Below, one piece after another: positions 8,429 to 42,038 of a stretch of DNA of 42,850 bases (position 1 is its first letter; each line of letters opens with the position of its first letter). The stretch lies in the IMG/VR virus record IMGVR_UViG_3300045988_041681, positions 1-42,850 of that record. One strand, given 5' to 3'. The notes beneath the pieces are model-generated. The model worked only from the letters and a program-made list of their open reading frames with translations, searched no databases and was not told the origin of the DNA. Position numbers and translations under genes: made by a program. This DNA is from a virus.

Positions 8429-8973
8429 TCTTCATCACCTCCAAAACTAAATTCAATCCCATCGCTCCAATCGACACCTAACTGTTTACATTTTGCTCTC
8501 GTAGATGTACCTCCAGAATGACTGGTTCTGAAAAGAAACAGTTCTTGAACGATACTAAAATATGACATTCTATAATAAAAGCGTTCCTCTTCGTCCAACT
8601 CCCTAATAGCATCTTCACCATGCACATATTCGTACCATTCCTCGAACTTTCCGACCAACTCCTGCATAAGGCTAATGCAATACTTCAAGATGTACTTTTC
8701 ATCGTGGCTCTCCAATTCTTTCTCTACAATCTGTTTCTCCATCGCCGCCCGGCATTCTTCCACCGTGCCGATTGCGCGGTACTGCTTCAGTTCTTCCAAC
8801 CATTCAGCAAGTTGCTCATGTTCGTTTGCACATATAGTATTGCCATATGTAATGGCTTCTTTATCAACCGATTCTGGAATATACGCATTATCTTCGATTA
8901 GTCTTGCTGACATCTTTTGGCATTCAGCCACTTCTCTTGCGTGTGATATAGCTTCATCAATTGTCATAGTCAC
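8425..8973 (-). CDS. Hypothetical protein, 182 aa
   Basis: Intact ORF with overlapping start/stop to its neighbours. Confidence 0.6.
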   Translation of the reverse strand: MTMTIDEAISHAREVAECQKMSARLIEDNAYIPESVDKEAITYGNTICANEHEQLAEWLEELKQYRAIGTVEECRAAMEKQIVEKELESHDEKYILKYCISLMQELVGKFEEWYEYVHGEDAIRELDEEERFYYRMSYFSIVQELFLFRTSHSGGTSTRAKCKQLGVDWSDGIEFSFGGDEE

Positions 8974-9784: not shown

Positions 9785-9976
9785 CTACCTCACTAAATCC
9801 GTTATTTTAACAGATACCCCTTTATATTTCCCGGTGCGACAATACTCTGCTGTATCAAAAAAACAAATGCATCCATCATCTTTTTTTTCAAGTGCTATGC
9901 TTACACCATTGCTTACCAGTGTATTTTTTAACAACATCAGCACCGCTTCTATCTCCTGCTTGGTTTCATCTGTCAT
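9785..9976 (-). CDS. Hypothetical protein, 63 aa
   Basis: ORF with GAGGAGGG RBS. Confidence 0.5.
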   Translation of the reverse strand: MTDETKQEIEAVLMLLKNTLVSNGVSIALEKKDDGCICFFDTAEYCRTGKYKGVSVKITDLVR

Positions 9977-10169
9977 TTCAACTGTACCCTCCTCTTTTTT
10001 CTACCTCTCTTTTCGAATTTATCGCACATTCCTACCGGACAGCCGCGTCTTAATCCTGTCTGTGAATAATATCAACACATGACCTCTGTTTGACTGTGCT
10101 TGTATGAGTAAATACATTTACGGCAGTATTTTATGCTTGTCTTTATCATCTCTCCCATGTTAATAATCC

Positions 10170-10763
10170 TTATTTCACCGCTTTTCCTGTTACAATATCC
10201 CAATTTTCATCCTCAATAAACTGATTCCGAATAATCTCATCCGTCAGATAGTGCTCCTTACTCTTTGGCTGCTTGCGCCAATAGGAATCAATGTAATAGG
10301 CAACCCAATTCATAAATTCTTCGATTTTGGCATTTGAGAAACGGTAAGAATCTTTTAATGTCGGAATTGTCAGATACATTGTGGAGGCAAGCGCGCTCTC
10401 GATATTCCGATCTGCGCCAAGCACTGCCCGTCCATTTTTTATATCTGCCATATACAATTTTTGTGACATTGGGATTGATTTTACCCACTTGACCACATCA
10501 ATTTTCTTTTTACGGCAATATGCCATCATGCTCTCGCTCGTTACCGCTTCGTCATCATCGTCCTGCCAAGATTTCCGACGCTCAACGGTTTTGCTATAAA
10601 AATTCGTGACCTGCTTAAACGTCATATCAAACTTGTCATACAAAATGGCTGTAAAAATATATCCCATGTGATTCGCGATATTATCTCCTAACTGACATTT
10701 TGCTAATTCCTGCTTATAAACAATCGACGGAATTAACCTCTGTCTCTGCTGTACGTTATGCAT
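10170..10763 (-). CDS. Hypothetical protein, 197 aa
   Basis: Intact ORF with AAGGAAGG RBS. Confidence 0.6.
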   Translation of the reverse strand: MHNVQQRQRLIPSIVYKQELAKCQLGDNIANHMGYIFTAILYDKFDMTFKQVTNFYSKTVERRKSWQDDDDEAVTSESMMAYCRKKKIDVVKWVKSIPMSQKLYMADIKNGRAVLGADRNIESALASTMYLTIPTLKDSYRFSNAKIEEFMNWVAYYIDSYWRKQPKSKEHYLTDEIIRNQFIEDENWDIVTGKAVK

Positions 10764-10785
10764 TTGTTCACCTTCCTTGTATTTT

Positions 10786-11622
10786 TTATTTTATATTTCC
10801 ACCCGCCATCATCTTTTCAATGATTTCCTCCTGCATCCGCTCTGCGATATGATCCCGGACTGATTCTTCTGGAAATGCGATCTGATATGTCCGCTCCTTA
10901 ATCCGGTTCGTGATCCGGTCATCGTAGGATAGCTTGTCCAGCGGATCATTACTCGTGAAAATCGTTACCTTCTGGTTTATGTACCGCTCGTTGATGATCT
11001 GATACATTTTGTCGTTGATCCATGCCGCCGGTGCTTCCACACCAAAATCATCAATGATTAAAATATCCGTTGTGGAAAGTGCATCTAAAAGCTGGCTTTC
11101 ATTGCCTGCTGCATCCCTGCGCCATGTATTCTTGATTTCCTGCAAGATGGTCAGTGATACTGCAAATTTGACTGTATATCTTTTCATCAGTTCATTTGCA
11201 ATCCCGGCAGAAATCCTTGTCTTACCGCTTCCCTTTGTCCTCGACCAGATATACAGTCCCATGCCTCTTTCCTTCTGGCTCTCGAAATCATCCAGATAGG
11301 TTTTTATGATTTTACAGGCATCTGACACCATCTTTTTACTTTCCTGCTTTCTGTACACATCCATTCGAAACGATCTCAGATCCATCCCACGGAATGCCTC
11401 CGGTATATCTGCGAATCGCAACCGCCTTGACATGACCGCTTTCTCACGGCATTTACACGGTACTGCGATTTCCACACCGTCTTTTATTTTTAAAATCCAC
11501 TCCCGCCCTTCGCAAATTGGACACACATCAGAATCCCTGGAAGTCTCCTGTGTCTCCACATTCCTGCATAAGTTCGTTGAGTGATTTTTCATGCGTTCCA
11601 GTATCTCTTCCAACTGTTCCAT
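10786..11622 (-). CDS. DnaC/IstB-like AAA+ helicase loader
   Basis: Walker A GSGKT, Walker B LIIDDFG, N-terminal CPIC zinc motif. AAAGGAGAG RBS. Confidence 0.85.
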   Translation of the reverse strand: MEQLEEILERMKNHSTNLCRNVETQETSRDSDVCPICEGREWILKIKDGVEIAVPCKCREKAVMSRRLRFADIPEAFRGMDLRSFRMDVYRKQESKKMVSDACKIIKTYLDDFESQKERGMGLYIWSRTKGSGKTRISAGIANELMKRYTVKFAVSLTILQEIKNTWRRDAAGNESQLLDALSTTDILIIDDFGVEAPAAWINDKMYQIINERYINQKVTIFTSNDPLDKLSYDDRITNRIKERTYQIAFPEESVRDHIAERMQEEIIEKMMAGGNIK

Positions 11623-17965: not shown

Positions 17966-17993
17966 GCCCCTCTATTAATATGAGGGGTTTTTT
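17966..17993 (+). terminator. Rho-independent terminator between the TM2 gene and the integrase gene
   Basis: CCCCTC-tattaatat-GAGGGG followed by TTTTTT. Confidence 0.7.
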
Positions 17994-18006
17994 AAGGGAG
18001 TTAAAA

Positions 18007-19347
18007 ATGAACATAGCAATTTATCCAAGGAAATCAAAAAAAGATGATAATTCAGAATCAATGGAACAGCAAATAGACGATTGTAAAAAGTACATTAATA
18101 AAACTTACCATAATGCAAATATAATCGTTTATTCTGGCGATTATGCGATTACAGGGCATAGCACGGCAAAAAGAAAGGACTTTCAGCGCATGATGGATGA
18201 TGTCAGAGCAGGAAGAATCAATGCAGTTGTTATTATGAGATACGATCGTATAGCAAGAAATATGAGAGATTTCTGTAACCTCTATCACGACATGGAAAGC
18301 GCAGGATGCAACTTGATATCAGTAAGTCAGCAGATCGATACTTCTACGCCATACGGAAAGAACTTCATGTACCAGATGGCAAACATGGCAGAATTAGAAT
18401 GGGCGGTTATATCTGAGCGATACAAAGACACCGCAGCTTATAAAATCCGTGAAGGGAAAGCTTACACTGGCAGAGTGCCCATAGGATTTAAAATAGAGAA
18501 AATAGATGGTGTAAAGAAAGTCGTACATGATAATGAGGAACAGACAAGGGCTATATTTGATTATTTGTTAGCAACCAAAAGCAAGCGTGGTACTGTTCTG
18601 TGGGTTCGTGAAAACTTCATCCCAGATTTTACTAGGCACAAATTGGACACAATGATCAAGTCAGATTTATATATTGGGAAAGTAAGGGAAAATGAAAATT
18701 TCTGCGAACCTTATTTTACCAAAGAAAAAATGGAAGAAATAAGAAGTGTCAATCAGATAAAATACGCTCCATCTGGTCATATATATTTATTCAGCGGATT
18801 ATTCCGTTGTCCTATATGTGGCAGAAAAATGTCAAGTTTTTACAGTATAGACAGGAAGACCAAAAAGCACCGGCAATATCAACGATGCTGGTTTGGTGGA
18901 AATGAGAAATTGCACAAAACAAAATTAGTATCAGAAGCAAAAACAGAAAAATATCTTCTTGAAAATCTTGATGCAGCATTAAAAAATCTTGAATTTGATG
19001 TAAAAAAAGAAGCAGGTAAACCAAAGCAAAATTTGAATAAAAAACTTAATGATGCGATAGGGGAGCGTGAAAGACTGAATTACCTTTTTGAAAAAGGAAG
19101 AATTGATATCCCAGAATACGAAAAGAAATACAGTATCTTATCAGAAAAAATAAATTCCATAACTGAGGAGTTGTCAAACAACAAAGTTGTAAGGATTGAG
19201 GAATTTAAGAAGCAGATCCCAGAAGACTGGAAAGAACTTTACGAACAACTAGATCAAAAAGGAAAACAAGAATTTTGGCATAGAATAATAAAAGAAATTT
19301 ATTTGAATGAAGCCTTTGAAATTACTGGCTTTATATTTTATATCTAG
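18007..19347 (+). CDS. int: Large serine recombinase (integrase)
   Basis: N-terminal resolvase domain (IAIYPRKS...VVIMRYDRIARN), recombinase domain, CPICGRKM zinc ribbon and C-terminal coiled coil. Confidence 0.9.
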   Translation: MNIAIYPRKSKKDDNSESMEQQIDDCKKYINKTYHNANIIVYSGDYAITGHSTAKRKDFQRMMDDVRAGRINAVVIMRYDRIARNMRDFCNLYHDMESAGCNLISVSQQIDTSTPYGKNFMYQMANMAELEWAVISERYKDTAAYKIREGKAYTGRVPIGFKIEKIDGVKKVVHDNEEQTRAIFDYLLATKSKRGTVLWVRENFIPDFTRHKLDTMIKSDLYIGKVRENENFCEPYFTKEKMEEIRSVNQIKYAPSGHIYLFSGLFRCPICGRKMSSFYSIDRKTKKHRQYQRCWFGGNEKLHKTKLVSEAKTEKYLLENLDAALKNLEFDVKKEAGKPKQNLNKKLNDAIGERERLNYLFEKGRIDIPEYEKKYSILSEKINSITEELSNNKVVRIEEFKKQIPEDWKELYEQLDQKGKQEFWHRIIKEIYLNEAFEITGFIFYI

Positions 19348-19439: not shown

Positions 19440-20165
19440 TTACGCTTTTACAATCGCAGCGTCAAATCCTGCTGCTTTCAATTTTTCCTGCAAGGAAATA
19501 GCATTTGCTTTGTTGCGATACGCTCCGACCTGTACACGATAAATAGAATCTTTATCACCTACGCTTGTCTCTGATCCAGAAGTTGCAGCATCGTCATCAG
19601 ATGTGTTATTGGATGGTTCAATGTACTGCTGTCCGGTAATTCCGTAAACAATTGCACTTGCCATGCTCTTAAAGTCATACAGTGCTACATCGTCTTTATC
19701 ATCCACGAAGCAACATTCAATCAGCATCGCAGGTGCTTTTGTGTGATTGAGCACGTAAAGCTTTTTGTTAATCTTCACACCACGATTTTTAAATCCAAGT
19801 GCTGCGATCGCATTTACAATTTTCTCTGCAAATGGTTTTGCTTTACTGTTATCACTATACACATATGCTTCTACACCTGTTGTCTGTCCGTTCCCGACAG
19901 CATCTTTGGCTCCTGCGTTAAAATGGATAGATACATCAAGATCAGCCGCATGAGAATTGCATTTACCTACGATGTTGCAAAGCACATTATTTGCACTTGT
20001 GCCATTGTCAACCGTACAGTCATACACGGTATGCCCAAGACCTTTTAACTGTCTGATAACCTCATTTTTAACATTTCTTGCTTCTGTTGATTCCCGGATG
20101 ATTCCGATAGCTCCGCACGCTACTTTTCCGTCCGGGTTGTGTCCGGCATGTACGTTAATAACCAT
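19440..20165 (-). CDS. Endolysin: N-acetylmuramoyl-L-alanine amidase (Amidase_3 type) with C-terminal SPOR domain
   Basis: VINVHAGHNP...SIHFNAG...LIECCFVD amidase motifs. YRVQVGAYRNKANAISLQEKLKAAGFDAAIV SPOR. AGGAGG RBS before the ATG at 20165. Confidence 0.9.
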   Translation of the reverse strand: MVINVHAGHNPDGKVACGAIGIIRESTEARNVKNEVIRQLKGLGHTVYDCTVDNGTSANNVLCNIVGKCNSHAADLDVSIHFNAGAKDAVGNGQTTGVEAYVYSDNSKAKPFAEKIVNAIAALGFKNRGVKINKKLYVLNHTKAPAMLIECCFVDDKDDVALYDFKSMASAIVYGITGQQYIEPSNNTSDDDAATSGSETSVGDKDSIYRVQVGAYRNKANAISLQEKLKAAGFDAAIVKA

Positions 20166-20169
20166 TCTT

Positions 20170-20439
20170 TTATTCCTCCTTCTTTTCAATATACTGCTTA
20201 AATAACTGGTGCAGTCCTGTGCTTGCTAAACCGCTGAATAAGCCACTTAATAAGATTGATGCTGTGATTGTCCATCCGTTGATCCAAATGGCTAAAAAGA
20301 CACCTAATACCGCACAAATGGTAGGGATATACTTGTTGTCAACATCCTTAATCCACTTCTTTACGACATAGCCTACACAAAGGCAAATGCCTACGATTAC
20401 CGGCACCATAAATTCTGTCAAAAATCCTAAATCTGTCAT
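20170..20439 (-). CDS. Holin
   Basis: 89 aa with three hydrophobic segments and a charged C-terminus (KQYIEKKEE). Immediately upstream of the endolysin. Confidence 0.7.
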   Translation of the reverse strand: MTDLGFLTEFMVPVIVGICLCVGYVVKKWIKDVDNKYIPTICAVLGVFLAIWINGWTITASILLSGLFSGLASTGLHQLFKQYIEKKEE

Positions 20440-33213: not shown

Positions 33214-33246
33214 AAAATAAAAAAGCACGCCCAAAATAGGACGTGC
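33214..33246 (-). terminator. Rho-independent terminator directly upstream of the tRNA
   Basis: GCACGTCC-tatttt-GGGCGTGC, then TTTTTTATTTT, on the minus strand. Confidence 0.75.
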
Positions 33247-33366
33247 CATGCATCATCCAATAACTATTCTAGGTTAGCGAACAGAATCCCTTTTTCTGTC
33301 CGGTACTTTTAATATTCTTTTCAATATATATTTTAACCTATTTTAAACAACTTTTTGTACCATTTT

Positions 33367-33395
33367 AAAAAGGGCAGATTGCTCCACCCCTTTTT
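33367..33395 (-). terminator. Weak terminator-like hairpin after the accessory island
   Basis: AAAAAGGG-N13-CCCTTTTT. Confidence 0.4.
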
Positions 33396-33396
33396 G

Positions 33397-33606
33397 CTAT
33401 TTCCCACCAAAATACCTTCTAAGTACTTCTTTTTCTTCTTCCACAATGCAATCCTTTTTTAATCTGTTGCACTGGTCGTATATATACTTTCCGTACTCTT
33501 CTAATTTGGCTATCATTGCATTTTTATTTTCCAATGTAGGATTTTTAATGTATTCTTTTTTAAGTCCTATATAGTCCTCATACTGCTTTATAACATCCAT
33601 TTTCAA
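33397..33606 (-). CDS. Hypothetical protein, 69 aa
   Basis: Intact ORF; last gene of the island. Confidence 0.5.
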   Translation of the reverse strand: MKMDVIKQYEDYIGLKKEYIKNPTLENKNAMIAKLEEYGKYIYDQCNRLKKDCIVEEEKEVLRRYFGGK

Positions 33607-33919
33607 TTACCCCATTCAAAATATCATCTGCTATGCCAACGACTTCTTTTCCATAAAGAGACAGAAAATCCGCTACGATTTCCTCTACATCTATTGGAAT
33701 TTGGCAGTCATATGAAAATGAAGCGCAGTGTACCAACTCATGAGATAGAACTCGCTCTAAAAGACTTCCGCTTAATGCATTTGACAAATAAACCGTTCGT
33801 TTGCTCCAATCTGTAACACCAAGTGTAATTGTTCCATCTGAACGCATCAAGCATTCACTATTAGGATTTACATATAAAATATTCCATTCAACATCATTGA
33901 TTTTAAACACTGCGCTCAC
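33578..33919 (-). CDS. Small putative zinc metallopeptidase (HExxH), 113 aa
   Basis: VLSHELVHC motif after a TVYLSNAL segment. Confidence 0.55.
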   Translation of the reverse strand: MSAVFKINDVEWNILYVNPNSECLMRSDGTITLGVTDWSKRTVYLSNALSGSLLERVLSHELVHCASFSYDCQIPIDVEEIVADFLSLYGKEVVGIADDILNGVIENGCYKAV

Positions 33920-33922
33920 CTC

Positions 33923-34573
33923 TTAGATTTTCTGTAACATCATCTGTAATTCATTTCTCCACATCTGCTTTTCTTCCGGGGCTGCATCTGATGTCATTTC
34001 AGTAATATCCATCTGCATATCTCGCAAGTAATCTTTTCTTGCTTTTGCACGCTCTTTTTTATCTTCTTCTGAATTGCCATGATGGTTTTCTCTGGTTTCC
34101 ATATAAGTACGTCTGGAAATACCGGCTTTTCCCTCTCTGGAATCCCTCGGATATGATCTATCTCCCATCATTCCGGTATCTGTATACATCCTTTTCAGGT
34201 CTTTCTTATCCATGTCTCTCATGTGCTCTGCATCTTCGTAATCATCCGGGTACATGTGATAATATGGGGGTTCATCATATCCTCTTCGTTTTCCTCTGCC
34301 TTTCGGTGCAAATCTTCCATCAGCATAACGATACCGGTCGTAATATCTTCGGTCATCCCCATACTCTAAAAGCTTCTCCATGATATCTGTTTCGTCCGCT
34401 TCGTTCATTGCCTTAGTAATTGTGGCATAATACTCTGCTTCTGACAGATCCTTTATCATGTCGATCACTTCTCCCATTTCTTCTGTGCTGACATTCTCAA
34501 TCCCTTTTTCAATCTCACATAAGGATTTTTCAGCAAGGCATTCAAGCATTTTATGAATTCTTTCAATATGCAT
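33923..34573 (-). CDS. Highly charged R/D/E/Y/M-rich protein, 216 aa
   Basis: Low-complexity core DRRYYDRYRYADGRFAPKGRGKRRGYDEPPYYHMYPDDYED. Confidence 0.55.
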   Translation of the reverse strand: MHIERIHKMLECLAEKSLCEIEKGIENVSTEEMGEVIDMIKDLSEAEYYATITKAMNEADETDIMEKLLEYGDDRRYYDRYRYADGRFAPKGRGKRRGYDEPPYYHMYPDDYEDAEHMRDMDKKDLKRMYTDTGMMGDRSYPRDSREGKAGISRRTYMETRENHHGNSEEDKKERAKARKDYLRDMQMDITEMTSDAAPEEKQMWRNELQMMLQKI

Positions 34574-34576
34574 ATA

Positions 34577-34999
34577 CTAAGCCTCCCTTACTACAATTAA
34601 ATTACTGTTTTGAACCTCGATAGCCTGTCCAGATGTATTCTGAACCGCTATTGCGCTGCTGTATCCATAAGCAACATCTACATAAACCTGTGCAGATACA
34701 TTGAATAAGTTTTCTGCTGCCGCAGGTGTTACGATCATTCTTGTAGACTGTAAAGGCTCTCCGTCAATTGCGATTGCAAGAGAAATAGCTTCCACCGTTC
34801 CACCGGTTGGGATCTGGATATTTCCGCTATAAGATACAAGAAATCTTGCTTTGCACTGGTTTGTGATTCCTCTTAATTTAACTACTCCGCTTCCCTGTCT
34901 GTGAACGATACATTTTGTTCCGCAAACCGGTGTCTCAGTAAATGCGACATCTTCTCCTTGCAGTACAGTCTGTAAAGCATTGGCTGTAAATTCTGACAT
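34577..34999 (-). CDS. Beta-rich protein, 140 aa. Possible C1q/TNF-like jelly-roll (BclA C-terminal-domain-like).
   Basis: Alternating hydrophobic pattern (FLVSYSGNIQIP...AISLAIAIDGEPL...VQNTSGQAIEVQNSNLIVV). The family call is from memory only. Confidence 0.5.
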   Translation of the reverse strand: MSEFTANALQTVLQGEDVAFTETPVCGTKCIVHRQGSGVVKLRGITNQCKARFLVSYSGNIQIPTGGTVEAISLAIAIDGEPLQSTRMIVTPAAAENLFNVSAQVYVDVAYGYSSAIAVQNTSGQAIEVQNSNLIVVREA

Positions 35000-35017
35000 A
35001 ATATTTTCCTCTCTTTC

Positions 35018-35051
35018 AAAAATATAAGGGCAAACATTGAAGTCTGCCCTT
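35018..35051 (-). terminator. Terminator-like hairpin inside the island
   Basis: AAGGGCA-N12-TGCCCTT, then ATATTTTT, on the minus strand. Confidence 0.5.
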
Positions 35052-35118
35052 TGTGTTTAAGTAATACTGCTATGCAGACATAATCTTGTCGATTAAGATA
35101 CTTTAATTATTCAGTTGT

Positions 35119-35865
35119 CTAACATCCGCATCCAGTATTGCAACCACATCCATACGGAATGTATGTGTTCGGGTTTGGCACCTGGTATGCTGGGATTGGT
35201 GATGGATTAACAGCGCTGATAATATGATTTGTCTGTGCTGTCATAGCGGTAGTCAGAAGTGCGTTCTGTCTATCCTGTGATGCTGCAAGTCTCAAATCAT
35301 TATTTTCTGCCTGCAACGTTGCGATCTTATCCTGGCATAAGTAGTCAAGTATCGCTCTTGTTCCGGCATTCTGGCTGTCAATAATATCTCTCGTGTTGTT
35401 GTTCATGGTGTTCTGTAATGCGCAAGTGTTCTGCGCCATGTTGAAGTTTACACCCTGGATAGCTTCACGAGTTTCGCAGCAACAATTTGCAAGCTGAGAC
35501 TGAATAGCATTTGCATTCTGCATTCCTGCTACTGTGTCCGCATTAATTGCCTGCTGAATGCTGTTAAATCCTGTCAGCATTCCGTTGTTTACTGCATAAA
35601 AGCCATCACAAAGACCATTTGTAATGCCATCAAGCTTACTTATGACTGCTGAATTGTCAAATCCTCTCTGGATATCAGCCTGTGTAGCCGCAGTTGCGGT
35701 ATAACCGCCACCACCATTACCACCGAATCCATAACCGCCCCATCCACCGAATAAGGCAAAAAGGATAATGAGAACCCACCAACCACCATCGCCCCATGCA
35801 CCATCATTACGGTTTCCACCAGTAACGGCGGCAATGTCCGCTAAACTTGGAGATGAATTAAACAT
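35119..35865 (-). CDS. Gly/Trp-rich membrane-anchored, N/Q/A-rich protein with Cys clusters, 248 aa
   Basis: WWVLIILFALFGGWGGYGFGGNGGGG TM/Gly segment. Internal CCC. C-terminal YGCGCNTGCGC. Confidence 0.6.
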   Translation of the reverse strand: MFNSSPSLADIAAVTGGNRNDGAWGDGGWWVLIILFALFGGWGGYGFGGNGGGGYTATAATQADIQRGFDNSAVISKLDGITNGLCDGFYAVNNGMLTGFNSIQQAINADTVAGMQNANAIQSQLANCCCETREAIQGVNFNMAQNTCALQNTMNNNTRDIIDSQNAGTRAILDYLCQDKIATLQAENNDLRLAASQDRQNALLTTAMTAQTNHIISAVNPSPIPAYQVPNPNTYIPYGCGCNTGCGC

Positions 35866-35916
35866 ATGTGTTCCTCCTAATAAAATTTATTTATACATAA
35901 TCTTGCAAGAATAGTA

Positions 35917-36132
35917 TCAATGTTTAAACTGGCTCATGATTTCTTCCGGGTTTAGACCTTTTTCTTTGCACAAATTTCTGGCAAGCTGTTCCAGCCCTTT
36001 ACTGTCTCCACGGTTCATCATGTCGAATGTATTTTTCATGATCGGATTATTTGAAAATTGAGAGTTGCTCATCATTTGACTTAATATCATCTTAGGGTTT
36101 CCACCGCACTGGATCATCTGCATTAAATTCAT
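35917..36132 (-). CDS. Met/Asn/Gln-rich protein, 71 aa
   Basis: Intact ORF with ATGA overlap to the upstream gene. Confidence 0.5.
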   Translation of the reverse strand: MNLMQMIQCGGNPKMILSQMMSNSQFSNNPIMKNTFDMMNRGDSKGLEQLARNLCKEKGLNPEEIMSQFKH

Positions 36133-36536
36133 TCAGAATCGCTCTCTTTCTTTGCTCTGGTAGTCCTCTGGGACTGAGTTATTTTAGCTTCTATCTGGTC
36201 TAATCGCTCCATTATCGGGGCAAACAATGTTGCCGTGTCTTCTTTCGGTAATTCGTTCTGCTTTCCGTCTAGCTGCGGTTTGTATGTAACTGTCTGAATA
36301 AGCCCATTAGCACCCCACGATTTTATATATATCTCTGATCCATCTGCTTTTGGGAAAATGGCAAATGGTGCATTCATGGGAACGTCATTCGCTGTGACTT
36401 CCTCAACAGAATTAACCATTCTTCCGCAAAGTCCAGCTTGTTGCGGCATGATTTGTTGCGGGAATTGCTGTTGAATCTGCTGTGGCTGTTGATATTGAGG
36501 ATAAGAATACTGGTTATATCTCTGATACTCGTACAT
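36129..36536 (-). CDS. Protein with Q/Y/P-rich (prion-like) N-terminus, 135 aa
   Basis: MYEYQRYNQYSYPQYQQPQQIQQQFPQQIMPQQ, followed by a globular segment. GAGAGG RBS. Confidence 0.55.
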   Translation of the reverse strand: MYEYQRYNQYSYPQYQQPQQIQQQFPQQIMPQQAGLCGRMVNSVEEVTANDVPMNAPFAIFPKADGSEIYIKSWGANGLIQTVTYKPQLDGKQNELPKEDTATLFAPIMERLDQIEAKITQSQRTTRAKKESDSE

Positions 36537-36614
36537 AATAAACCTCTCTTTCTATCTTCATTTTATTATTAACAACACAATTGAACCACCCCAGTAAAAC
36601 CCCATTAAAAGGAC

Positions 36615-36643
36615 ACAAAAAAGACACCCTTAACGGATGTCTT
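36615..36643 (-). terminator. Rho-independent terminator after the island regulator gene
   Basis: AAGACATCC-gttaa-GGGTGTCTT, then TTTT, on the minus strand. Confidence 0.65.
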
Positions 36644-36657
36644 TAATGATGAGAAAG

Positions 36658-36879
36658 TTATGTAAAATGTTGTCCAGTTACCTTAAGAATTTTATGTTGC
36701 ATTTTTACGTTAATACGTCCGGCTGTCTTAGTCGAAATATGCATAATTTCTGCACATTCTTCTAGCGACTTTTCTTTCTTCCGTAAATCAAAGAGCGTTT
36801 CTTCTGTCGGTGTGAAATCACACAATTCTTTTATATGCTCTTTTTCTTCTTTGGTAAAGCACGTAACAATGTTTTTCAT
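36658..36879 (-). CDS. Small sigma-70 region-4-like HTH protein, 73 aa
   Basis: LFDLRKKEKSLEECAEIMHISTKTAGRINVKMQHKI resembles a region 4.2 HTH. Confidence 0.55.
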   Translation of the reverse strand: MKNIVTCFTKEEKEHIKELCDFTPTEETLFDLRKKEKSLEECAEIMHISTKTAGRINVKMQHKILKVTGQHFT

Positions 36880-37009: not shown

Positions 37010-38293
37010 TTATTCCACTTTCGTTGTACCATTTTTTTCGATTTTATTTTTATAAGCCGTTGCTCGTCCATTTGCAACCGCAGACTGTTTTCTATTAAAT
37101 CCAGAAACCTTCGTTCTATCGCCTTGTAATTGAAGATCATTATTCTTACAGAATGATTGAAGTTTTTTATTCTGCATTCGCAGTTTATATGCAAGTTTAT
37201 CATATTGAGGTTGCAAGATCTCTTTTACATCTGTTTCGGCAATCATATCAAGTTCTTGTTTCTTGGCCATAATTTCACGCTTTGTTTTTCGAATTTCTCT
37301 TTCAAGTGATCTCTGCTTCTGCTGCAAATCATAAAGTTTTTGGCTTTCATCTGCATTTATATTCACATTTCCGTTTTCATCAAGGTACTTATTTACCATG
37401 TCTTTTCGCCACGGGCCATGTGAATGTCTGCAATTGTATCCGTGAAGTCCTAATAGATTCACAACAGTTCCCGTTCCGGTTTTAGGGTCTATGGTATAAC
37501 CTGTGCTTTCAAGAAGATTCGGAAATCCTGGTTCGCTCCCGATTATTTTATATGCTTTTCCTTGCCAGTGATCGTGAGATGGAATCCCTGTTGGATCCTT
37601 TTTATCATATCTTGCCCCCGGATGCGCTGATACTAGAACATACTCTATTTTATATTGTGCAATATAAATGTTTGTCACTTGTGCCGCGGTCTGATTCATA
37701 GATGTGACGATGCAACACCTCACTGCCGCTTCAAGAGAACGCTTCGTTCCAGTAGGGTATTCTACCATAACACCAGATTCCGCATATCTATCCAGAACTT
37801 CGCAGACTGCACTGCTGTAAGACTGCATTCCAGATGCAACTCTATAATCAACCTCATTCAGCATGTTGAGCAAGTCTTTCTGTGTCTGGTTAATGGTTGT
37901 TTTTGTCAAATTATCAAGTTCACCGGATGTCTTTATTAATTCTGCATTCATTGCCAGAATTGCCATATTATTTTTTAGAGGAGATATAATATCTGATGCT
38001 GATATCTGCGTCAAGACTTCCTTATCATCTGAGAATGATGTCATAACACTATCCCTTAATAATCTGCGAACCTCATTTCTCGATTTTCCAGACATTTCAG
38101 ATATTCTTTTTACAATCTCTGTGTTATGCAGTCCCATCTGTTGGAGTTTCCACAATTCTCGGTCGGCAGTTCCTGACAATTCACCGGATTTTATCAATCG
38201 TGTTACAATGTCTGATATAATCCAATTTTCAAGATCCTGATACATCTCAACCAGTTTATCAGTTTTTCCGTAAAAATAATCCGGTCTAAGCAT
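37010..38293 (-). CDS. Minor head protein, SPP1 gp7 / Mu F family, with coiled-coil C-terminal extension
   Basis: N-terminal LVEMYQDLENWIISDIVTRL and central AHPGARYD...HWQGKAY motifs. Position after the portal gene. Confidence 0.8.
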   Translation of the reverse strand: MLRPDYFYGKTDKLVEMYQDLENWIISDIVTRLIKSGELSGTADRELWKLQQMGLHNTEIVKRISEMSGKSRNEVRRLLRDSVMTSFSDDKEVLTQISASDIISPLKNNMAILAMNAELIKTSGELDNLTKTTINQTQKDLLNMLNEVDYRVASGMQSYSSAVCEVLDRYAESGVMVEYPTGTKRSLEAAVRCCIVTSMNQTAAQVTNIYIAQYKIEYVLVSAHPGARYDKKDPTGIPSHDHWQGKAYKIIGSEPGFPNLLESTGYTIDPKTGTGTVVNLLGLHGYNCRHSHGPWRKDMVNKYLDENGNVNINADESQKLYDLQQKQRSLEREIRKTKREIMAKKQELDMIAETDVKEILQPQYDKLAYKLRMQNKKLQSFCKNNDLQLQGDRTKVSGFNRKQSAVANGRATAYKNKIEKNGTTKVE

Positions 38294-38628
38294 TATCCTT
38301 TTCCAACCTCTCTTTTAACAAGATCTATCCACTGCTTACCGTGATTTTCTTTTGCAGTTTCAAACCATCTTTTTCCCGTTCCAGGTGTGTGATATTTTAA
38401 TTCTGTTCCTGTCGGATACTTCTTTTCTCCACGATTCGCCCATGATCTACCGTCTGCCGTCAAATAAAGTTCCCCTACATACTGATAATGCGCATACGGT
38501 GTGTCTACTGTAATTAATCCTGGTTCTTTTATCTGAGTCTTATTTCTCAGGTCGCCCTGCTGCATAGGTGTGTATTTTCTCATGTCATTTACAACCTGTT
38601 CGTCAAGAACATTCTGAGCATTTCTCAA
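38293..38628 (-). CDS. Minor capsid protein-like protein (start uncertain; TTG in the ORF track)
   Basis: YAHYQYVGE and PGTGKRWFE motifs. The frame stays open 93 nt further upstream with no ATG, GTG or TTG. Confidence 0.5.
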   Translation of the reverse strand: MRNAQNVLDEQVVNDMRKYTPMQQGDLRNKTQIKEPGLITVDTPYAHYQYVGELYLTADGRSWANRGEKKYPTGTELKYHTPGTGKRWFETAKENHGKQWIDLVKREVGKG

Positions 38629-38713: not shown

Positions 38714-38872
38714 TCACTTCTTTAAATAAAACTTAATTGTCTCTATCGCAGTCTTTTTCTGCAACTTTATCTGAACCAACTCCGGCGGTTCAGGTTCAGG
38801 GATAATATATCCACCTTTTAAAATACCATTTTTAGGAAGCTCCGGTAGCCCTTTAATTATTTTACTCCTCAC
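38714..38872 (-). CDS. Possible micro-protein, 52 aa (GTG start)
   Basis: GGTGG lies 7 nt upstream of the GTG at 38872. Fills the gap after the portal gene. Weak call. Confidence 0.25.
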   Translation of the reverse strand: MRSKIIKGLPELPKNGILKGGYIIPEPEPPELVQIKLQKKTAIETIKFYLKK

Positions 38873-40334
38873 CAAACAGACCACCGCTGTTCCTTTCCGC
38901 ATCTTCCTGTGCTCTCTCTGCAAACATGGCATCTACTTCATCATCATTAAATCCCTCGTATTCCTTAAGGTATTTACGCTTAGAATAAATACCCTGAATC
39001 ATTAAATTATATGCTCTTGATCTGTCCTGCTCAAAACTTGCAAGCAAATCTTTAAAATAAAATATATCTTCGTCCGGTACATCATCATCCAGTGCATCCA
39101 CATAGCCTGCCGGGATTCCGTAAAGGTCGCAGAATACATTGATTGCATAAATAAGATTTTTCAACGCTGTCTTTATGCTTTTTCTGATATCGTTAATCGT
39201 TTCTACCGTTTCATTATCGTCACTTTCAACCTGCGTTGCTGTCAATCTTCCTGACTTTCTGTCAAGGATAAACTGCCCTTGTGAAAATCCGCATTTTGTC
39301 GAAATCATAGATAGCACGCTGTTAATGTCTGTGATTCTGTCAGAAGTAAGCATGGTCGGGACGTGTTCATCAATCGTGCTTTTTGAATCCAGCCCCAATT
39401 TCAAGCCTTTAACGAACCGAGGAAGTTCTACTGTTGAGGAACGGATGCCGCCTTTTCCCTGTTTTGTCATGGCGTTCTCATCAATGAAAGTAATGTGCTG
39501 CGAATCCTCAACTTCATTCCCTTTTTTACTCCATGCTATATCGAGATCTCTAAGCTCCATAAGTGCATTTGAGAAAATCGAGACACCTTCTGGAGATGAG
39601 TAGTCGATCGTATTGTTAAATGGTGTTTTTAAATAGGCGAACAGTGGCTTTTCTACGTTCATAATATGAACGACTTCATCAATTGAAGACCACTCCGAAA
39701 CGTCATGCAGTTCTATCTTTTTACCAAGTGAGTTACTGCTGTTTGACTTGAACGCTCTATTCTGGATCTCGTAAACGTTCACATCTTCGCCCTCTTTATT
39801 TTTTGAGGTCGTGAAATGATGGTATTCAAGCCGGTAATAATACACTTTATCTTTTATAATTCGATTAATAAAGATGCATCCTCTAATATCTCCGTTGCTG
39901 GTCTTTTCTGTAATCGCAAAGTCCCACGGCATAATATAATCTATCATGTTGTCTGGGTTCATTGAGCCGTTCGGCTTTAAGATAATTCCGCCAACTCCTA
40001 GCATATCTTCTACTTTGTCCCGGATAGAAGTGTCAACCATTGCCATGATGCACTTATTAATAAAATCCGCTCTTTCTGAACCTGTTATGCTAACTGATAA
40101 ATCCATGCAAGATTTCTTTGCTGTGTACTGGCAGAGAAATTTTGCAAAATTGATTGTACGGATGTCATTGTTTTTCGGATCCACCCAGAAAGGGCTTCCC
40201 TTAATTATGTCGTTCCATCTCTGCTGTGAGTTTTCAATCTCCGGAGAAGTGATAAACTCGACATTAAATTCTTTCTCAGCATCTGTTCTAAAAAACTTCA
40301 TGATCGTCTCCCTTATTTTTTCAAAAAAATTCAT
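38862..40334 (-). CDS. Portal protein (SPP1 gp6-like)
   Basis: 490 aa, directly downstream of the terminase gene. Acidic C-terminus. Confidence 0.9.
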   Translation of the reverse strand: MNFFEKIRETIMKFFRTDAEKEFNVEFITSPEIENSQQRWNDIIKGSPFWVDPKNNDIRTINFAKFLCQYTAKKSCMDLSVSITGSERADFINKCIMAMVDTSIRDKVEDMLGVGGIILKPNGSMNPDNMIDYIMPWDFAITEKTSNGDIRGCIFINRIIKDKVYYYRLEYHHFTTSKNKEGEDVNVYEIQNRAFKSNSSNSLGKKIELHDVSEWSSIDEVVHIMNVEKPLFAYLKTPFNNTIDYSSPEGVSIFSNALMELRDLDIAWSKKGNEVEDSQHITFIDENAMTKQGKGGIRSSTVELPRFVKGLKLGLDSKSTIDEHVPTMLTSDRITDINSVLSMISTKCGFSQGQFILDRKSGRLTATQVESDDNETVETINDIRKSIKTALKNLIYAINVFCDLYGIPAGYVDALDDDVPDEDIFYFKDLLASFEQDRSRAYNLMIQGIYSKRKYLKEYEGFNDDEVDAMFAERAQEDAERNSGGLFGEE

Positions 40335-40337
40335 TTT

Positions 40338-42038
40338 TTAATCCTCATAATCGTCGCTGTCTTCTTCTTCCTCATCATCATAAAGACCGTCATTTCTTCG
40401 GCTGGTCATGATAATCCTGTTTAATGCATAAATGTTTGCCATGATCGTATCTTCTTCTAAGGTCGGGTATGCATCCGAAAATGAACCATCTGGAAGCTGC
40501 TCATGTTCTGCTTTTACAAACTCTTTTTCTGTATTCGGGCATCGCTCTGGATCAATCACGATCTTATTACATCGCTGAAGCCACTCCCAGCAGTAATCTC
40601 TGCCTTTTCCGCTTCCCCATCTTTTCTTTGCCCCAATCGCATTGAATCCCCAGTCCTGCATCTCTGCTATTCCGTCCGGTCTGGCAGAATCGCAAATGAT
40701 CTCTACATTCATAAACTTCTTTATCTTTCTGGCAAAGGTAGAGTTTTTACATTTTTTAGAATACACTTCGCCGAAAATGTAAAGTGTGTCCGTTTCGTAA
40801 TCATAATAATTCTGACTGAATACCTGTGGGTGTGTATATCCGAAGTCTAAGCCGTGGTTTACTGTATCGAATGTCATTAACTCATCATCCGATATTTTTC
40901 TGATTTCTAAATTGTCAAAGATGCCTCCGCCTGTTCCAGTGACTTCTCCGAGATAATTATTTTTATAATATAATGGCTTATGAATCCTGAACCACTCCGC
41001 ACGTTCGAAGAATCGTTTTCCTAACCATTTCACTGGGACGTTATAATAATAACTGTGGCAGATCCGTGCCTGTGGCTTATTTCTGCATTCTTCGGTATAC
41101 TCATTCATAAAATTGTTTTTTGACTTCGGAGGGTTGAAGATTTTTATGTCGAGTGCTGGCGTATCTGCTCGCAGAAATGTATCCTCGATGTTATCCATCT
41201 GCTCAACTCCTGCCATCTCATCGCACTCCTCGTGAATTAAAAGCTTTACATATCCGAATGGCACGTTGAACGATTTCAAGCTGATTGGCTTATCTGCTCC
41301 GGCAAACATGACCATTTGCCCGGTTGGTTTATAAACCGCACACATTGGGGATTGTTTAAAATCCCAGTTATCCAGATCCTGATATCTTATTACTGTTTTC
41401 ATAAACTGATTATACACCGAGCTTCTTAAGTCGACTTTAAATCTTCTGGTGTATACGACATGCGCCTGTGGATCTTGTCTGATCGTCTCATATGCAAGAT
41501 TTCCCCAAAAATTGGACTTAATAGAACCACGACCGCCCTTAGAAATTATCTCATGCACATCTATCTCTCCGGCAAAGGCTTCATGTACAGTTCTGTAAAT
41601 TTCCACAAAGTCGCTTGTTATATCTGTGATCGGGATCGTCCAGAGTGCCGATTTCTCTCTCTTTTCCTTTTCCTCTCGCTCGATCTTCTGCTTTTCTGCT
41701 ATGGTCAGTGCTTTTTCCAAACCGTCCATAGCCTTAAGCTGATCTGAGAAATCCGGGGCGAATCCCAGTCCGTCCACAACTTCGCCCTTTGCAATTTTAC
41801 TTCTGCGCTCCTGTATTTCTGCTAGCGACATGATATCCCGGTGCTGTTCTTTCTCGATGCGCTGCATCTGATTTTCTATATATGCTAAAACTTCAACATT
41901 TTTCAGCAGACGCTGTCCCTGAGAATATGCTGTCTTAGAAGAATATTCGGCGGATATCGCAGCTTGAGTAGCATTCCCGCCATTTTTTATATACTCGTCT
42001 GCAAATGCTTTCCGTTTCTGTGTGAGTTTTCCCTTCAT
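40338..42038 (-). CDS. Terminase: N-terminal small-subunit (Terminase_2-like HTH) domain fused to a PBSX-type large subunit
   Basis: Residues 1-60, KRKAFADEYIKNGGNATQAAISAEYSSKTAYSQGQRLLKN, are TerS-like. Walker A GGRGSIKS at about residue 170 and the nuclease region that follows are TerL-like. Confidence 0.85.
   Translation of the reverse strand: MKGKLTQKRKAFADEYIKNGGNATQAAISAEYSSKTAYSQGQRLLKNVEVLAYIENQMQRIEKEQHRDIMSLAEIQERRSKIAKGEVVDGLGFAPDFSDQLKAMDGLEKALTIAEKQKIEREEKEKREKSALWTIPITDITSDFVEIYRTVHEAFAGEIDVHEIISKGGRGSIKSNFWGNLAYETIRQDPQAHVVYTRRFKVDLRSSVYNQFMKTVIRYQDLDNWDFKQSPMCAVYKPTGQMVMFAGADKPISLKSFNVPFGYVKLLIHEECDEMAGVEQMDNIEDTFLRADTPALDIKIFNPPKSKNNFMNEYTEECRNKPQARICHSYYYNVPVKWLGKRFFERAEWFRIHKPLYYKNNYLGEVTGTGGGIFDNLEIRKISDDELMTFDTVNHGLDFGYTHPQVFSQNYYDYETDTLYIFGEVYSKKCKNSTFARKIKKFMNVEIICDSARPDGIAEMQDWGFNAIGAKKRWGSGKGRDYCWEWLQRCNKIVIDPERCPNTEKEFVKAEHEQLPDGSFSDAYPTLEEDTIMANIYALNRIIMTSRRNDGLYDDEEEEDSDDYED

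Follow-up and report, generated by a model that had tools for sequence, protein, structure and literature searches.

Why should a phage carry a block of eight small genes between its minor capsid and scaffold genes? This question is raised by an island at positions 33397-36879 of the IMG/VR virus record IMGVR_UViG_3300045988_041681, the whole 42,850-nucleotide stretch of which is called the window here. On the minus strand of the window, eight co-oriented open reading frames (ORFs), g1 to g8, lie between the genes for a gp7-like minor capsid protein and the scaffold. The island is an insertion relative to other phages, and only g1-g7 form a conserved unit, with g8 as a weakly conserved appendix. 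This unit is a cassette that moves horizontally between phages, sits in varying settings and is missing from some relatives, and it represents an undescribed kind of phage system that is conserved and mobile and has one recognisable fold. With a probability of roughly 40%, the island is read here as a self-contained, moron-like mobile accessory cassette that modifies the membrane or envelope, and not as part of core head morphogenesis, spore building or the essential virion.

Organization and boundaries of the island

The eight ORFs are all found where the initial annotation had placed them, and the island and its boundary elements are arranged as follows, from g1 towards the scaffold gene.

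36658-36879, minus strand: g1, 73 amino acids (aa), helix-turn-helix (HTH) protein resembling sigma-70 region 4
36620-36644, minus strand: hairpin and U-tract in the gap between g1 and g2, -15.9 kcal/mol, z -5.6
36129-36536, minus strand: g2, 135 aa, Q/Y/P-rich N-terminus
35917-36132, minus strand: g3, 71 aa, Met/Asn/Gln-rich
35119-35865, minus strand: g4, 248 aa, putative anchor protein (phrog_16490, E 9e-66)
35026-35051, minus strand: hairpin and U-tract in the gap between g4 and g5, -16.4 kcal/mol, z -4.8
34577-34999, minus strand: g5, 140 aa, predicted TNF/C1q-like jelly-roll (phrog_20016, E 7e-60)
33923-34573, minus strand: g6, 216 aa, R/D/Y/G-rich middle
33578-33919, minus strand: g7, 113 aa, GTG start, SHELVH motif
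33397-33606, minus strand: g8, 69 aa, K/E/Y-rich, overlapping g7 by 29 nt in another frame
33367-33394, minus strand: hairpin and U-tract at the island end, -14.8 kcal/mol, z -2.9, missed in a stricter scan
33224-33247, minus strand: hairpin, a boundary element just upstream of the scaffold gene
33141-33214, minus strand: tRNA-Ile(UAU), just upstream of the scaffold gene

Four terminators had been proposed, and all four hairpin-plus-U elements fold stably, with energies of -14.8 to -16.4 kcal/mol and z-scores of -2.9 to -5.6, values equalled by none of 200 shuffled sequences.

Two comparisons support the view that the island is an insertion. In Roseburia phage Jekyll, whose minor capsid protein is 72.6% identical to its window counterpart, the gap between the minor capsid and scaffold genes holds only an 88-aa ORF and about 390 nt. 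In crAss001, the scaffold gene begins 236 nt past gp30 and no cassette is present at the homologous site, whereas in its relative cr116_1 a seven-gene cassette separates the scaffold gene from the L,D-carboxypeptidase gene, two genes that are neighbours in crAss001.

The composition of the island does not mark it as foreign. The GC content at third codon positions (GC3) is 0.363 in the island versus 0.372 elsewhere in the phage, and ATA accounts for 23% of the Ile codons in the island versus 22% in the rest of the phage. As its codon usage equals that of the rest of the genome, the island is not a recent foreign arrival. The tRNA that had been said to follow the island is indeed there, though it is part of the phage backbone and not of the mobile cassette, and the tRNA/hairpin boundary has about 80% nucleotide identity to the equivalent spot in the island-less Jekyll. 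In bacteria, tRNA-Ile(UAU) is uncommon. The tRNA immediately before the scaffold gene varies among relatives (L044 10385-10468, L047 10191-10262, L062 10270-10343), being Ile-UAU in the window and Gln-UUG, Thr-UGU and Met-CAU in the relatives.

A fixed gene order with interchangeable parts

Four g4 seeds were used to gather loci from IMG/VR, from phages in GenBank and from GTDB, the last with a single genome for each species. This gave 95 non-redundant loci, whose g4 proteins share no more than 85% identity and which have 3.5 kb or more of flank on each side. Neighbours were labelled by iterative profile searches and counted if co-oriented and within 4 kb of g4; a first, cruder picking of ORFs had undercounted the cassette members. 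The following percentages of the 95 loci describe the part of the g4 family to which the seeds, all from Firmicutes phages, belong.

g2: 88%
g3, in two sequence types: 86%, directly upstream of g4
g5: 75%, directly after g4
type-B, a different Cys-rich beta protein: 16%
'crB' protein of crAss-like phages: 3%
g1-like HTH protein: 67%, upstream
g6: 66%, downstream of g5
small Cys-His-Asp-type peptidase (phrog_3754): 58%
g7-type HExxH protein: 12%
109-aa protein: 36%
g8: 3%

Relative to g4, the positions are fixed, with g2 at -2, g3 at -1, the knob protein at +1 and g6 at +2. Across the 95 loci, g5, type-B and crB are mutually exclusive, and no locus has both a Cys-type and an HExxH peptidase. 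This combination of fixed order and interchangeable parts points to one machine rather than to unrelated genes. The earlier view that all eight genes form a unit stands for g1-g7 but fails for g8, given its frequency above.

It had been proposed to check whether the genes also travel together in bacterial genomes outside a phage context. Among the 28 species-representative genomes with hits, 9 keep the full g2-g7 order, and wherever markers near the hits could be recognised, these are phage genes. Of these genome records, 26 have Clostridia-type titles, among them Lachnospiraceae, Oscillospiraceae, Ruminiclostridium, Ruminococcus and Christensenellaceae, while the other two, Collinsella and Akkermansia, may be binning errors.

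Distribution and mobility of the cassette

The cassette has been found in several genomic settings. In the phage group L044-L083, whose major capsid protein is about 61% identical, the island occupies the same site as in the window; by tblastn, g1, g4 and g5 of this group are 48%, 75% and 60% identical, and diverged g2, g3 and g6 were identified from reading the ORFs. Like the window and this group, Dulem virus 35 has its copy in the head module. In Dulem virus 39, g2-g3-g4-g5-g6-g7 stand in window order beside an integrase, and in Bacteroides phage C3_41T2LP the cassette lies among recombination genes. Copies follow the lysis genes in Butyrivibrio phage Ceridwen, Clostridium perfringens phage XP41-N3, bajarodcaudo virus 5 and Dulem virus 33, and the tail genes in Dulem virus 36; the cassettes of these five phages are built on g2, g3 and g4. 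Sequence motifs, read by eye, suggest that some cassettes adjoin genes for an SNF2-type helicase or an endolysin-like protein.

The block in cr116_1 runs in the order HTH, HExxH, g4, a beta-rich Cys protein and then three further genes, namely a protein with a small N-terminal domain and, by eye, a coiled-coil-like C-terminus, a charged Tyr-rich protein and a second HExxH protein. When compared with g5 as possible distant homologues, crB and type-B reach profile-profile probabilities of 16% and 0.2%, respectively.

A few phages carry homing endonuclease genes, of HNH/NUMOD4 type by eye, either within the cassette, where they separate g3 from g4, or a short way upstream of it (L087 4178-4729 in Dulem virus 33 and L101 5364-5912, both antisense; L091 5270-5890). 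This hints at one possible route of mobility; as a general mechanism, homing endonucleases were rejected, since only L087 and L101 have a convincing HNH-type ORF within the cassette, and the remaining antisense ORFs in the census looked spurious by eye. In cr116_1 (L084), two coding sequences are labelled 'major capsid protein' (8658-8858 and 9942-10792) with an unrelated ORF (VOG10904) between them, which suggests that the capsid gene is interrupted by an intron or homing element. Type-B cassettes usually add a phrog_17879 protein (L001 7631-8158, L086 6374-7381, L088 6395-7174), often with a long N/S/G-rich N-terminus and a motif that looks ferritin-like by eye; a ferritin relationship of this trailing protein found no support in Pfam. 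The by-eye impression that a 77-aa protein is a BhlA/XhlA-like holin was likewise not supported.

The putative anchor protein g4

The most widely shared component is g4, whose family comprises 2045 clusters at 50% identity (E<=0.001). The protein contains 12% each of A, G and N, 10 Cys residues and a single hydrophobic segment, in agreement with the Cys-rich membrane protein described in the initial annotation. It begins with a conserved N-terminal motif (SLADIAAVTG), followed by the hydrophobic segment at about residues 28-48, which is flanked by Gly and Trp. In the family alignment, the motif and the segment are conserved together with an invariant CCC, the TRDIID and ASQ..Q motifs and near-invariant prolines. 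The tail consists of a Pro-rich PxPxPAYxVPNP stretch and a Cys-rich C-terminus, GCGCNTGCGC, and about 90% of the family members have Cys pairs within their last 15 residues. The AlphaFold2 (AF2) model has a short helix over the hydrophobic segment and a continuous helix at 72-219 that carries the CCC motif; its predicted local distance difference test (pLDDT) score is 67, with confident prediction limited to the part that starts at about residue 140.

Searches of the PDB gave no match for g4, either by sequence or by Foldseek, where the model amounts to one long helix, and 47 g4 relatives compared with Pfam gave two chance hits only. Processing of g4 as a GG-leader peptide by a C39 peptidase was considered and rejected: the window protein reads SLADIAAVTGG, but the GG is not conserved in the family, and the Cys-type peptidase has no C39-family match in Pfam or, by sequence, in the PDB.

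Homologues of g4 occur in many crAss-like phages, Bacteroides phage C3_41T2LP, T1-like coliphages and two viruses assigned to Methanomassiliicoccales. In the T1-like coliphages, two ORFs separated by 94 nt together correspond to the homologue, as in JakobBernoulli (L085), where bas07_0035 and bas07_0034 (L085 3668-3901 and 3995-4372) encode, respectively, a Gly-rich membrane piece of 77 aa and a piece of 125 aa that runs from CCC to CCGC. The 125-aa piece is annotated as a 'putative sugar-binding protein' and adjoins the lateral tail fibre gene.

The putative knob protein g5

The one recognisable fold belongs to g5. Its AF2 model (pLDDT 85, predicted template modelling score 0.81) has a ten-strand jelly-roll that is superposable on the BclA C-terminal domain (CTD), ExsFA and BxpB. 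The best PDB matches found by Foldseek are 9h38, 8d02, 7r1m, 9h3d and 1wck (E 5e-7 to 1e-5, TM 0.67-0.77), which are structures of the F-BclA CTD, BxpB, ExsFA and BclA, and the next-best are TNF-family ligands and phage fibre knobs. Thus, the BclA-CTD-like fold suspected for the 140-aa protein is upheld by the model. In BFVD, the best matches are stand-alone gut-phage proteins of 135-145 aa, some of which are named 'BclA protein'.

By sequence, the window g5 has no hit to the Pfam family PF18573 at E<=0.1, and a single-sequence PDB search gave nothing significant. Its homologue in Dulem virus 35, which is 42% identical, scores 30.1 bits (E 5e-7) against PF18573, below the gathering score of 38, and covers positions 13-127 of the 128 in the profile. 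At about residues 110-115, G-C-C (mostly PRGCC) is present in each of the 17 aligned relatives, but the window g5 has AYGYSS there; a Cys pair kept almost throughout the family has thus been lost from this copy. The g5 protein presumably forms a trimer.

The remaining proteins

The compositions and the HExxH motif of the initial annotation agree with the residue counts, and its region-4-like HTH gene corresponds to g1. This protein matches the region-4 end of sigma-factor profiles below threshold, both in phrog_1190, 'RNA polymerase sigma factor' (E 3.3e-5, positions 98-157 of 167), and in TIGR02937 (E 0.0023, 17.5 bits versus a cut-off of 42.9, positions 107-163 of 165), and has no hit in Pfam; g1 is a probable regulator of the cassette.

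The proteins g2, g3 and g6 have no match to an annotated family. In g2, with 15% Q and 6% Y, a small conserved central domain is followed by a short C-terminal stretch that is helical by eye; it matches phrog_21718, of unknown function (E 2e-7), and a PDB profile search found no sequence relative. Met and Asn make up 14% and 13% of g3. Rich in E, D, R, M, K and Y, g6 has conserved N- and C-terminal segments, helical by eye, and its homologues were recovered by iterative search.

On the evidence of its motif, g7 is a putative minimal HExxH zincin-like metallopeptidase. Its matches to DUF2268 (E 0.0016, 18.4 bits versus 23.6) and phrog_1233 (E 6e-12) are both sub-threshold, and one homologue has weak DUF6782, Peptidase_M78 and SprT-like hits, all below cut-off; a single-sequence PDB search with g7 gave nothing significant. 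The Cys-type peptidase of other cassettes has invariant D-C, H and D residues, with no hit in Pfam and nothing significant in a PDB profile search, and the same PDB search was equally negative for the type-B protein. Rich in K, E and Y, g8 matches the C-terminal part of phrog_28802 (E 1.5e-5) and shows similarity to the C-terminal end of the g6-like proteins that relatives encode; it may be either a relic or a fragment translated on its own.

Except for g4, no island protein has a hydrophobic stretch (19-residue Kyte-Doolittle mean <1.1) or a signal peptide. Against Pfam, PHROGs, NCBIfam and PADLOC, the eight proteins gave only PHROGs of 'unknown function' and sub-threshold hits, in line with the earlier statement that none resembles a canonical virion component, and the extra cassette members gave the same outcome, with no annotated family. 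Among the 5027 models of PADLOC 2.0, the only match was that of g8 to PD-Lambda-5_A, at a chance-level E of 0.004.

A proposed working of the cassette

If the island is an accessory cassette acting at the membrane, its parts may work together as follows. The unit would be controlled by g1, and the internal terminators may grade expression into g1, g2-g4 and g5-g8. The organiser would be g4, with its hydrophobic segment in the cytoplasmic membrane, its helix of about 150 residues forming an oligomeric coiled-coil stalk and its Pro/Cys-rich tail at the end. The g5 protein would serve as a knob or docking platform, a place that is elsewhere taken by an unrelated beta-rich, Cys-rich protein, while g2, g3 and g6, with their low-complexity regions, could act as a matrix, as chaperones or as adaptors. 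One of the components would be matured by a single small peptidase, of HExxH type here and of Cys-His-Asp type elsewhere. Because only g4 has a hydrophobic segment and the others lack a signal peptide, the infected or lysogenic cell would build the assembly on the cytoplasmic side of its membrane. The assembly would be exposed to the exterior only once the cell lyses, and Cys and Tyr residues could then cross-link it. As to its purpose, the leading guess is that the membrane or envelope of the infected cell is modified for the benefit of the phage, whether for exclusion, competition or adhesion.

It is also possible, though somewhat doubtful, that the cassette is a multi-protein system of gut and rumen viruses that extends across host domains, in which g4 nucleates the knob, the prion-like Q/Y-rich and R/D/Y-rich proteins and the peptidase. 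Just as tentatively, such a system may mean that phages reinvented or donated the exosporium principle, in which a TNF-fold trimer docks a Pro-rich peptide and the assembly is matured by proteolysis and cross-linked through disulfides or tyrosines, and that its product is a new intracellular or surface nanostructure formed in the course of infection.

Several observations weigh against the cassette as an envelope modifier that works in this way. No known homologue ties any component to a function, and several copies, those in the window and cr116_1 among them, lie directly upstream of the scaffold and major capsid genes, in the same direction, which also fits a virion role. The topology of g4 is ambiguous, the residues flanking its segment being acidic on the N-terminal side (K+R 0.5, D+E 2.9) and nearly neutral on the C-terminal side. 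Docking of the g4 tail on g5 would be an analogy with the exosporium only; the tail motif does not co-vary with the choice of g5 or type-B as partner, and the exosporium-leader profile TIGR03720 does not match g4. As for autonomy, the L044 relatives have no terminators at the equivalent sites, and sigma-70-like sites number 16 in 6.5 kb compared with 18.2 +/- 3.8 in shuffled sequences; a 9/12 match lies upstream of g1, at 37070-37041. The census, with its Firmicutes-phage seeds, bears on one part of the family, and in the crAss-like cassettes only g4 is demonstrably homologous, the rest being parallel in layout.

Alternative explanations

The main rival is a virion role, in which the cassette would encode a non-essential virion accessory, with g4 as a fibre- or ejection-type protein, g5 as a distal knob or decoration and maturation by the peptidase, the product acting as an adhesin or as a membrane-inserting protein that enters with infection. 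This is rather unlikely, even with the position of the head-module copies directly upstream of scaffold and major capsid genes, and co-oriented with these, in the window, the L044 group, Dulem virus 35, L307, L308, L312 and cr116_1. TNF/C1q-like knobs are typical of fibre and spike tips, and g5 matches the phi812 central spike and cyanophage tail fibres; moreover, Cys- and Tyr-rich proteins suit extracellular life, and the hosts of g4-bearing viruses span Firmicutes, Bacteroides, E. coli and archaea, suggesting independence of the host envelope. Depositors have annotated crAss-like homologues as 'outer capsid protein/viral fiber', which are labels only. However, the cassette lies as often outside structural modules, near endolysin, integrase and recombination/helicase genes, it has an HTH regulator of its own in 67% of loci, and some relatives are without it. 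In addition, no similarity to any known virion family was found, and the strongly hydrophobic N-terminal segment of g4 would be unusual for a capsid-attached fibre.

Less probable still is a cassette for superinfection exclusion, competition or defence, where a g4 complex would block DNA entry or trigger abortive infection with the peptidase as effector or activator and g1 as regulator. Accessory and mobile, the cassette sits at module junctions by integrases and lysis genes, which are common spots for such systems; it combines a membrane anchor, a protease and an HTH regulator, and its carriers include both temperate and virulent phages. Nevertheless, the PADLOC models were unmatched save for the one g8 hit given above, no nuclease, NTPase or other usual effector domain is present, and the Q/Y-rich and R/D/Y-rich partners and the TNF-fold knob are foreign to known systems.

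A third explanation, that g4 acts like a spanin or signal-anchor-release protein and aids disruption of the envelope after holin and endolysin, is very improbable. In its N-terminal anchor, long coiled coil and conserved Cys residues g4 does recall i-spanins, its Gly-rich anchor is like signal-anchor-release domains, most so in the T1-like homologue, and many cassettes lie just downstream of endolysin/holin genes. However, the endolysin gene of the window (19440-20189) is about 13 kb from the cassette, there is no ORF for a lipoprotein partner in the island, and the T1-like g4 homologue lies by lateral tail fibre and primase genes in a stretch with no annotated lysis gene. The carriers, furthermore, are mostly Clostridia and their phages; Clostridia are generally monoderm, and monoderm hosts need no spanins.

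The least probable explanation is that of the initial annotation, a lysogenic-conversion module that remodels the spore coat, the exosporium or the host cell surface. Many Clostridia form spores, and 26 of the 28 genome hits have Clostridia-type titles; the g5 fold is that of BclA-CTD/ExsFA/BxpB, the island proteins resemble those of coat and exosporium in being Cys-rich, Tyr-rich or hyper-charged, signal peptides are absent as in proteins assembled in the mother cell, and the exosporium also uses a Pro-rich peptide on a TNF-fold trimer together with proteolysis (PMC12357932). Against this, the full cassette occurs in Butyrivibrio phage Ceridwen and its many rumen relatives, a cassette of the same layout occurs in virulent-type Bacteroides crAss-like phages, coliphages and archaeal viruses have g4 homologues, the TNF fold is common among viral proteins, phage fibres and giant-virus proteins included, and no coat-family match was found, nor a TIGR03720 leader (NCBIfam) or, on reading the sequences, GXY collagen repeats in the island proteins. 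Because the cassette is carried by a Butyrivibrio phage and by virulent-type phages, and its anchor protein by viruses of Gram-negative bacteria and archaea, a spore- or lysogeny-specific role is unlikely, and this part of the initial annotation is not supported. Butyrivibrio is a non-sporulating genus.

Comparison with known systems

The accessory cassette can be compared with four kinds of known system. The closest in fold is the BclA/ExsFA (BxpB) pair of the Bacillus cereus group exosporium: g5 would have the same jelly-roll fold and has the same size as stand-alone ExsFA/BxpB, and a g5 homologue spans nearly the whole PF18573 profile. The ExsF/F-Anchor crystal structure shows a Pro-rich leader gripped by the ExsF trimer in its inter-protomer clefts; the first 19 residues of BclA are removed by proteolysis (PMC12357932). 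The g4 tail, NPSPIPAYQVPNPNTYIPYG, loosely resembles this Pro-rich leader and its docking in the ExsF trimer clefts, and the cassette includes a protease, just as BclA is N-terminally processed. The cassette differs in that g5 is only 11-14% identical in sequence, the window g5 has neither a Pfam threshold match nor the CC pair of its family, there is no collagen-like region or TIGR03720 leader, and the context is a phage, in some cases of non-sporulating hosts, and not a sporulation operon.

A second likeness is to proteins with a TNF-fold head on a stalk. EDA-A1 and other TNF-family ligands are type II membrane proteins, and the P5 spike of PRD1 is a trimeric protein with a stalk and a TNF-like knob; the structures matched by g5 include both EDA-A1 and Chlamydia Pgp3. 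Should g4 and g5 associate, the cassette would have the same design of anchor, coiled-coil stalk and TNF-fold head as these proteins. In the cassette, however, the stalk and knob are separate polypeptides whose association is hypothetical, the knob can be replaced by unrelated beta-rich proteins, and there are extra low-complexity partners and a peptidase.

Morons of lambdoid phages are autonomous accessory transcription units between core phage genes. The cassette likewise stands between genes that are adjacent or nearly so in relatives, is bounded and subdivided by terminators of its own, the four hairpin-plus-U elements, and has a regulator gene of its own. Some relatives have it and others lack it at the same site, as seen for Jekyll versus the window and crAss001 versus cr116_1, and its position varies between genomes. 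It differs from morons in having six to eight conserved genes instead of one or two, no convincing promoter and the same codon usage as the phage, and in being carried also by virulent-type crAss-like phages.

The i-spanins of the lambda Rz type resemble g4 in their N-terminal anchor and long coiled coil with conserved Cys, and g4 is often near lysis genes in other phages. Unlike them, g4 has no sequence or fold match and no outer-membrane lipoprotein partner, it is far from the lysis genes of the window, and the carriers of the cassette are mostly Clostridia.

The phage genome around the island

The window is an essentially complete genome of a temperate siphophage of Lachnospiraceae. The island region is 97.4% identical to MT835516, a human-faecal phage record, and g4-like proteins of 99-100% identity occur in hundreds of contigs with the source names Anaerobutyricum hallii, Roseburia inulinivorans and 'Clostridiales bacterium'. 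The tail genes are also on the minus strand, and the main landmarks are the following.

40338-42038, minus strand: terminase
38862-40334, minus strand: portal
38293-38628, minus strand: small minor head protein, 111 aa (phrog_556), abutting the gene for the 427-aa minor capsid protein
37010-38293, minus strand: Phage_min_cap2 minor capsid protein, 427 aa (PF06152, E 1.7e-66)
32439-33062, minus strand: scaffold (PF06810, E 1.3e-17)
31495-32427, minus strand: major capsid protein
19440-20189, minus strand: endolysin, with a possible holin adjoining
17980-19347, plus strand: serine integrase

The minor capsid protein of Jekyll is a single protein of 615 aa (L094 7633-9480), whereas the window has the two abutting ORFs of 111 and 427 aa. 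The 72.6% identity applies to the first 419 or so residues of the Jekyll protein, compared with the 427-aa protein of the window; the rest has no counterpart there.

Significance

A search of the literature on the PHROG families of the cassette and on BclA-like phage proteins found no description of the cassette. If it is a real system, it would be among the more widespread blocks of phage 'dark matter', as its anchor protein reaches abundant human-gut prophages, rumen phages, crAss-like phages, BASEL coliphages and viruses of methanogenic archaea. Its fixed order and interchangeable parts, with two peptidase types and three knob types, are the signature of a functional machine, and cultured, tractable carriers, namely T1-like coliphages, Ceridwen and Clostridium perfringens phages, make the question of its role directly testable. 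The cassette would also provide a phage context for the BclA/ExsF fold outside spores, which bears on the origin of exosporium and endospore-appendage proteins.

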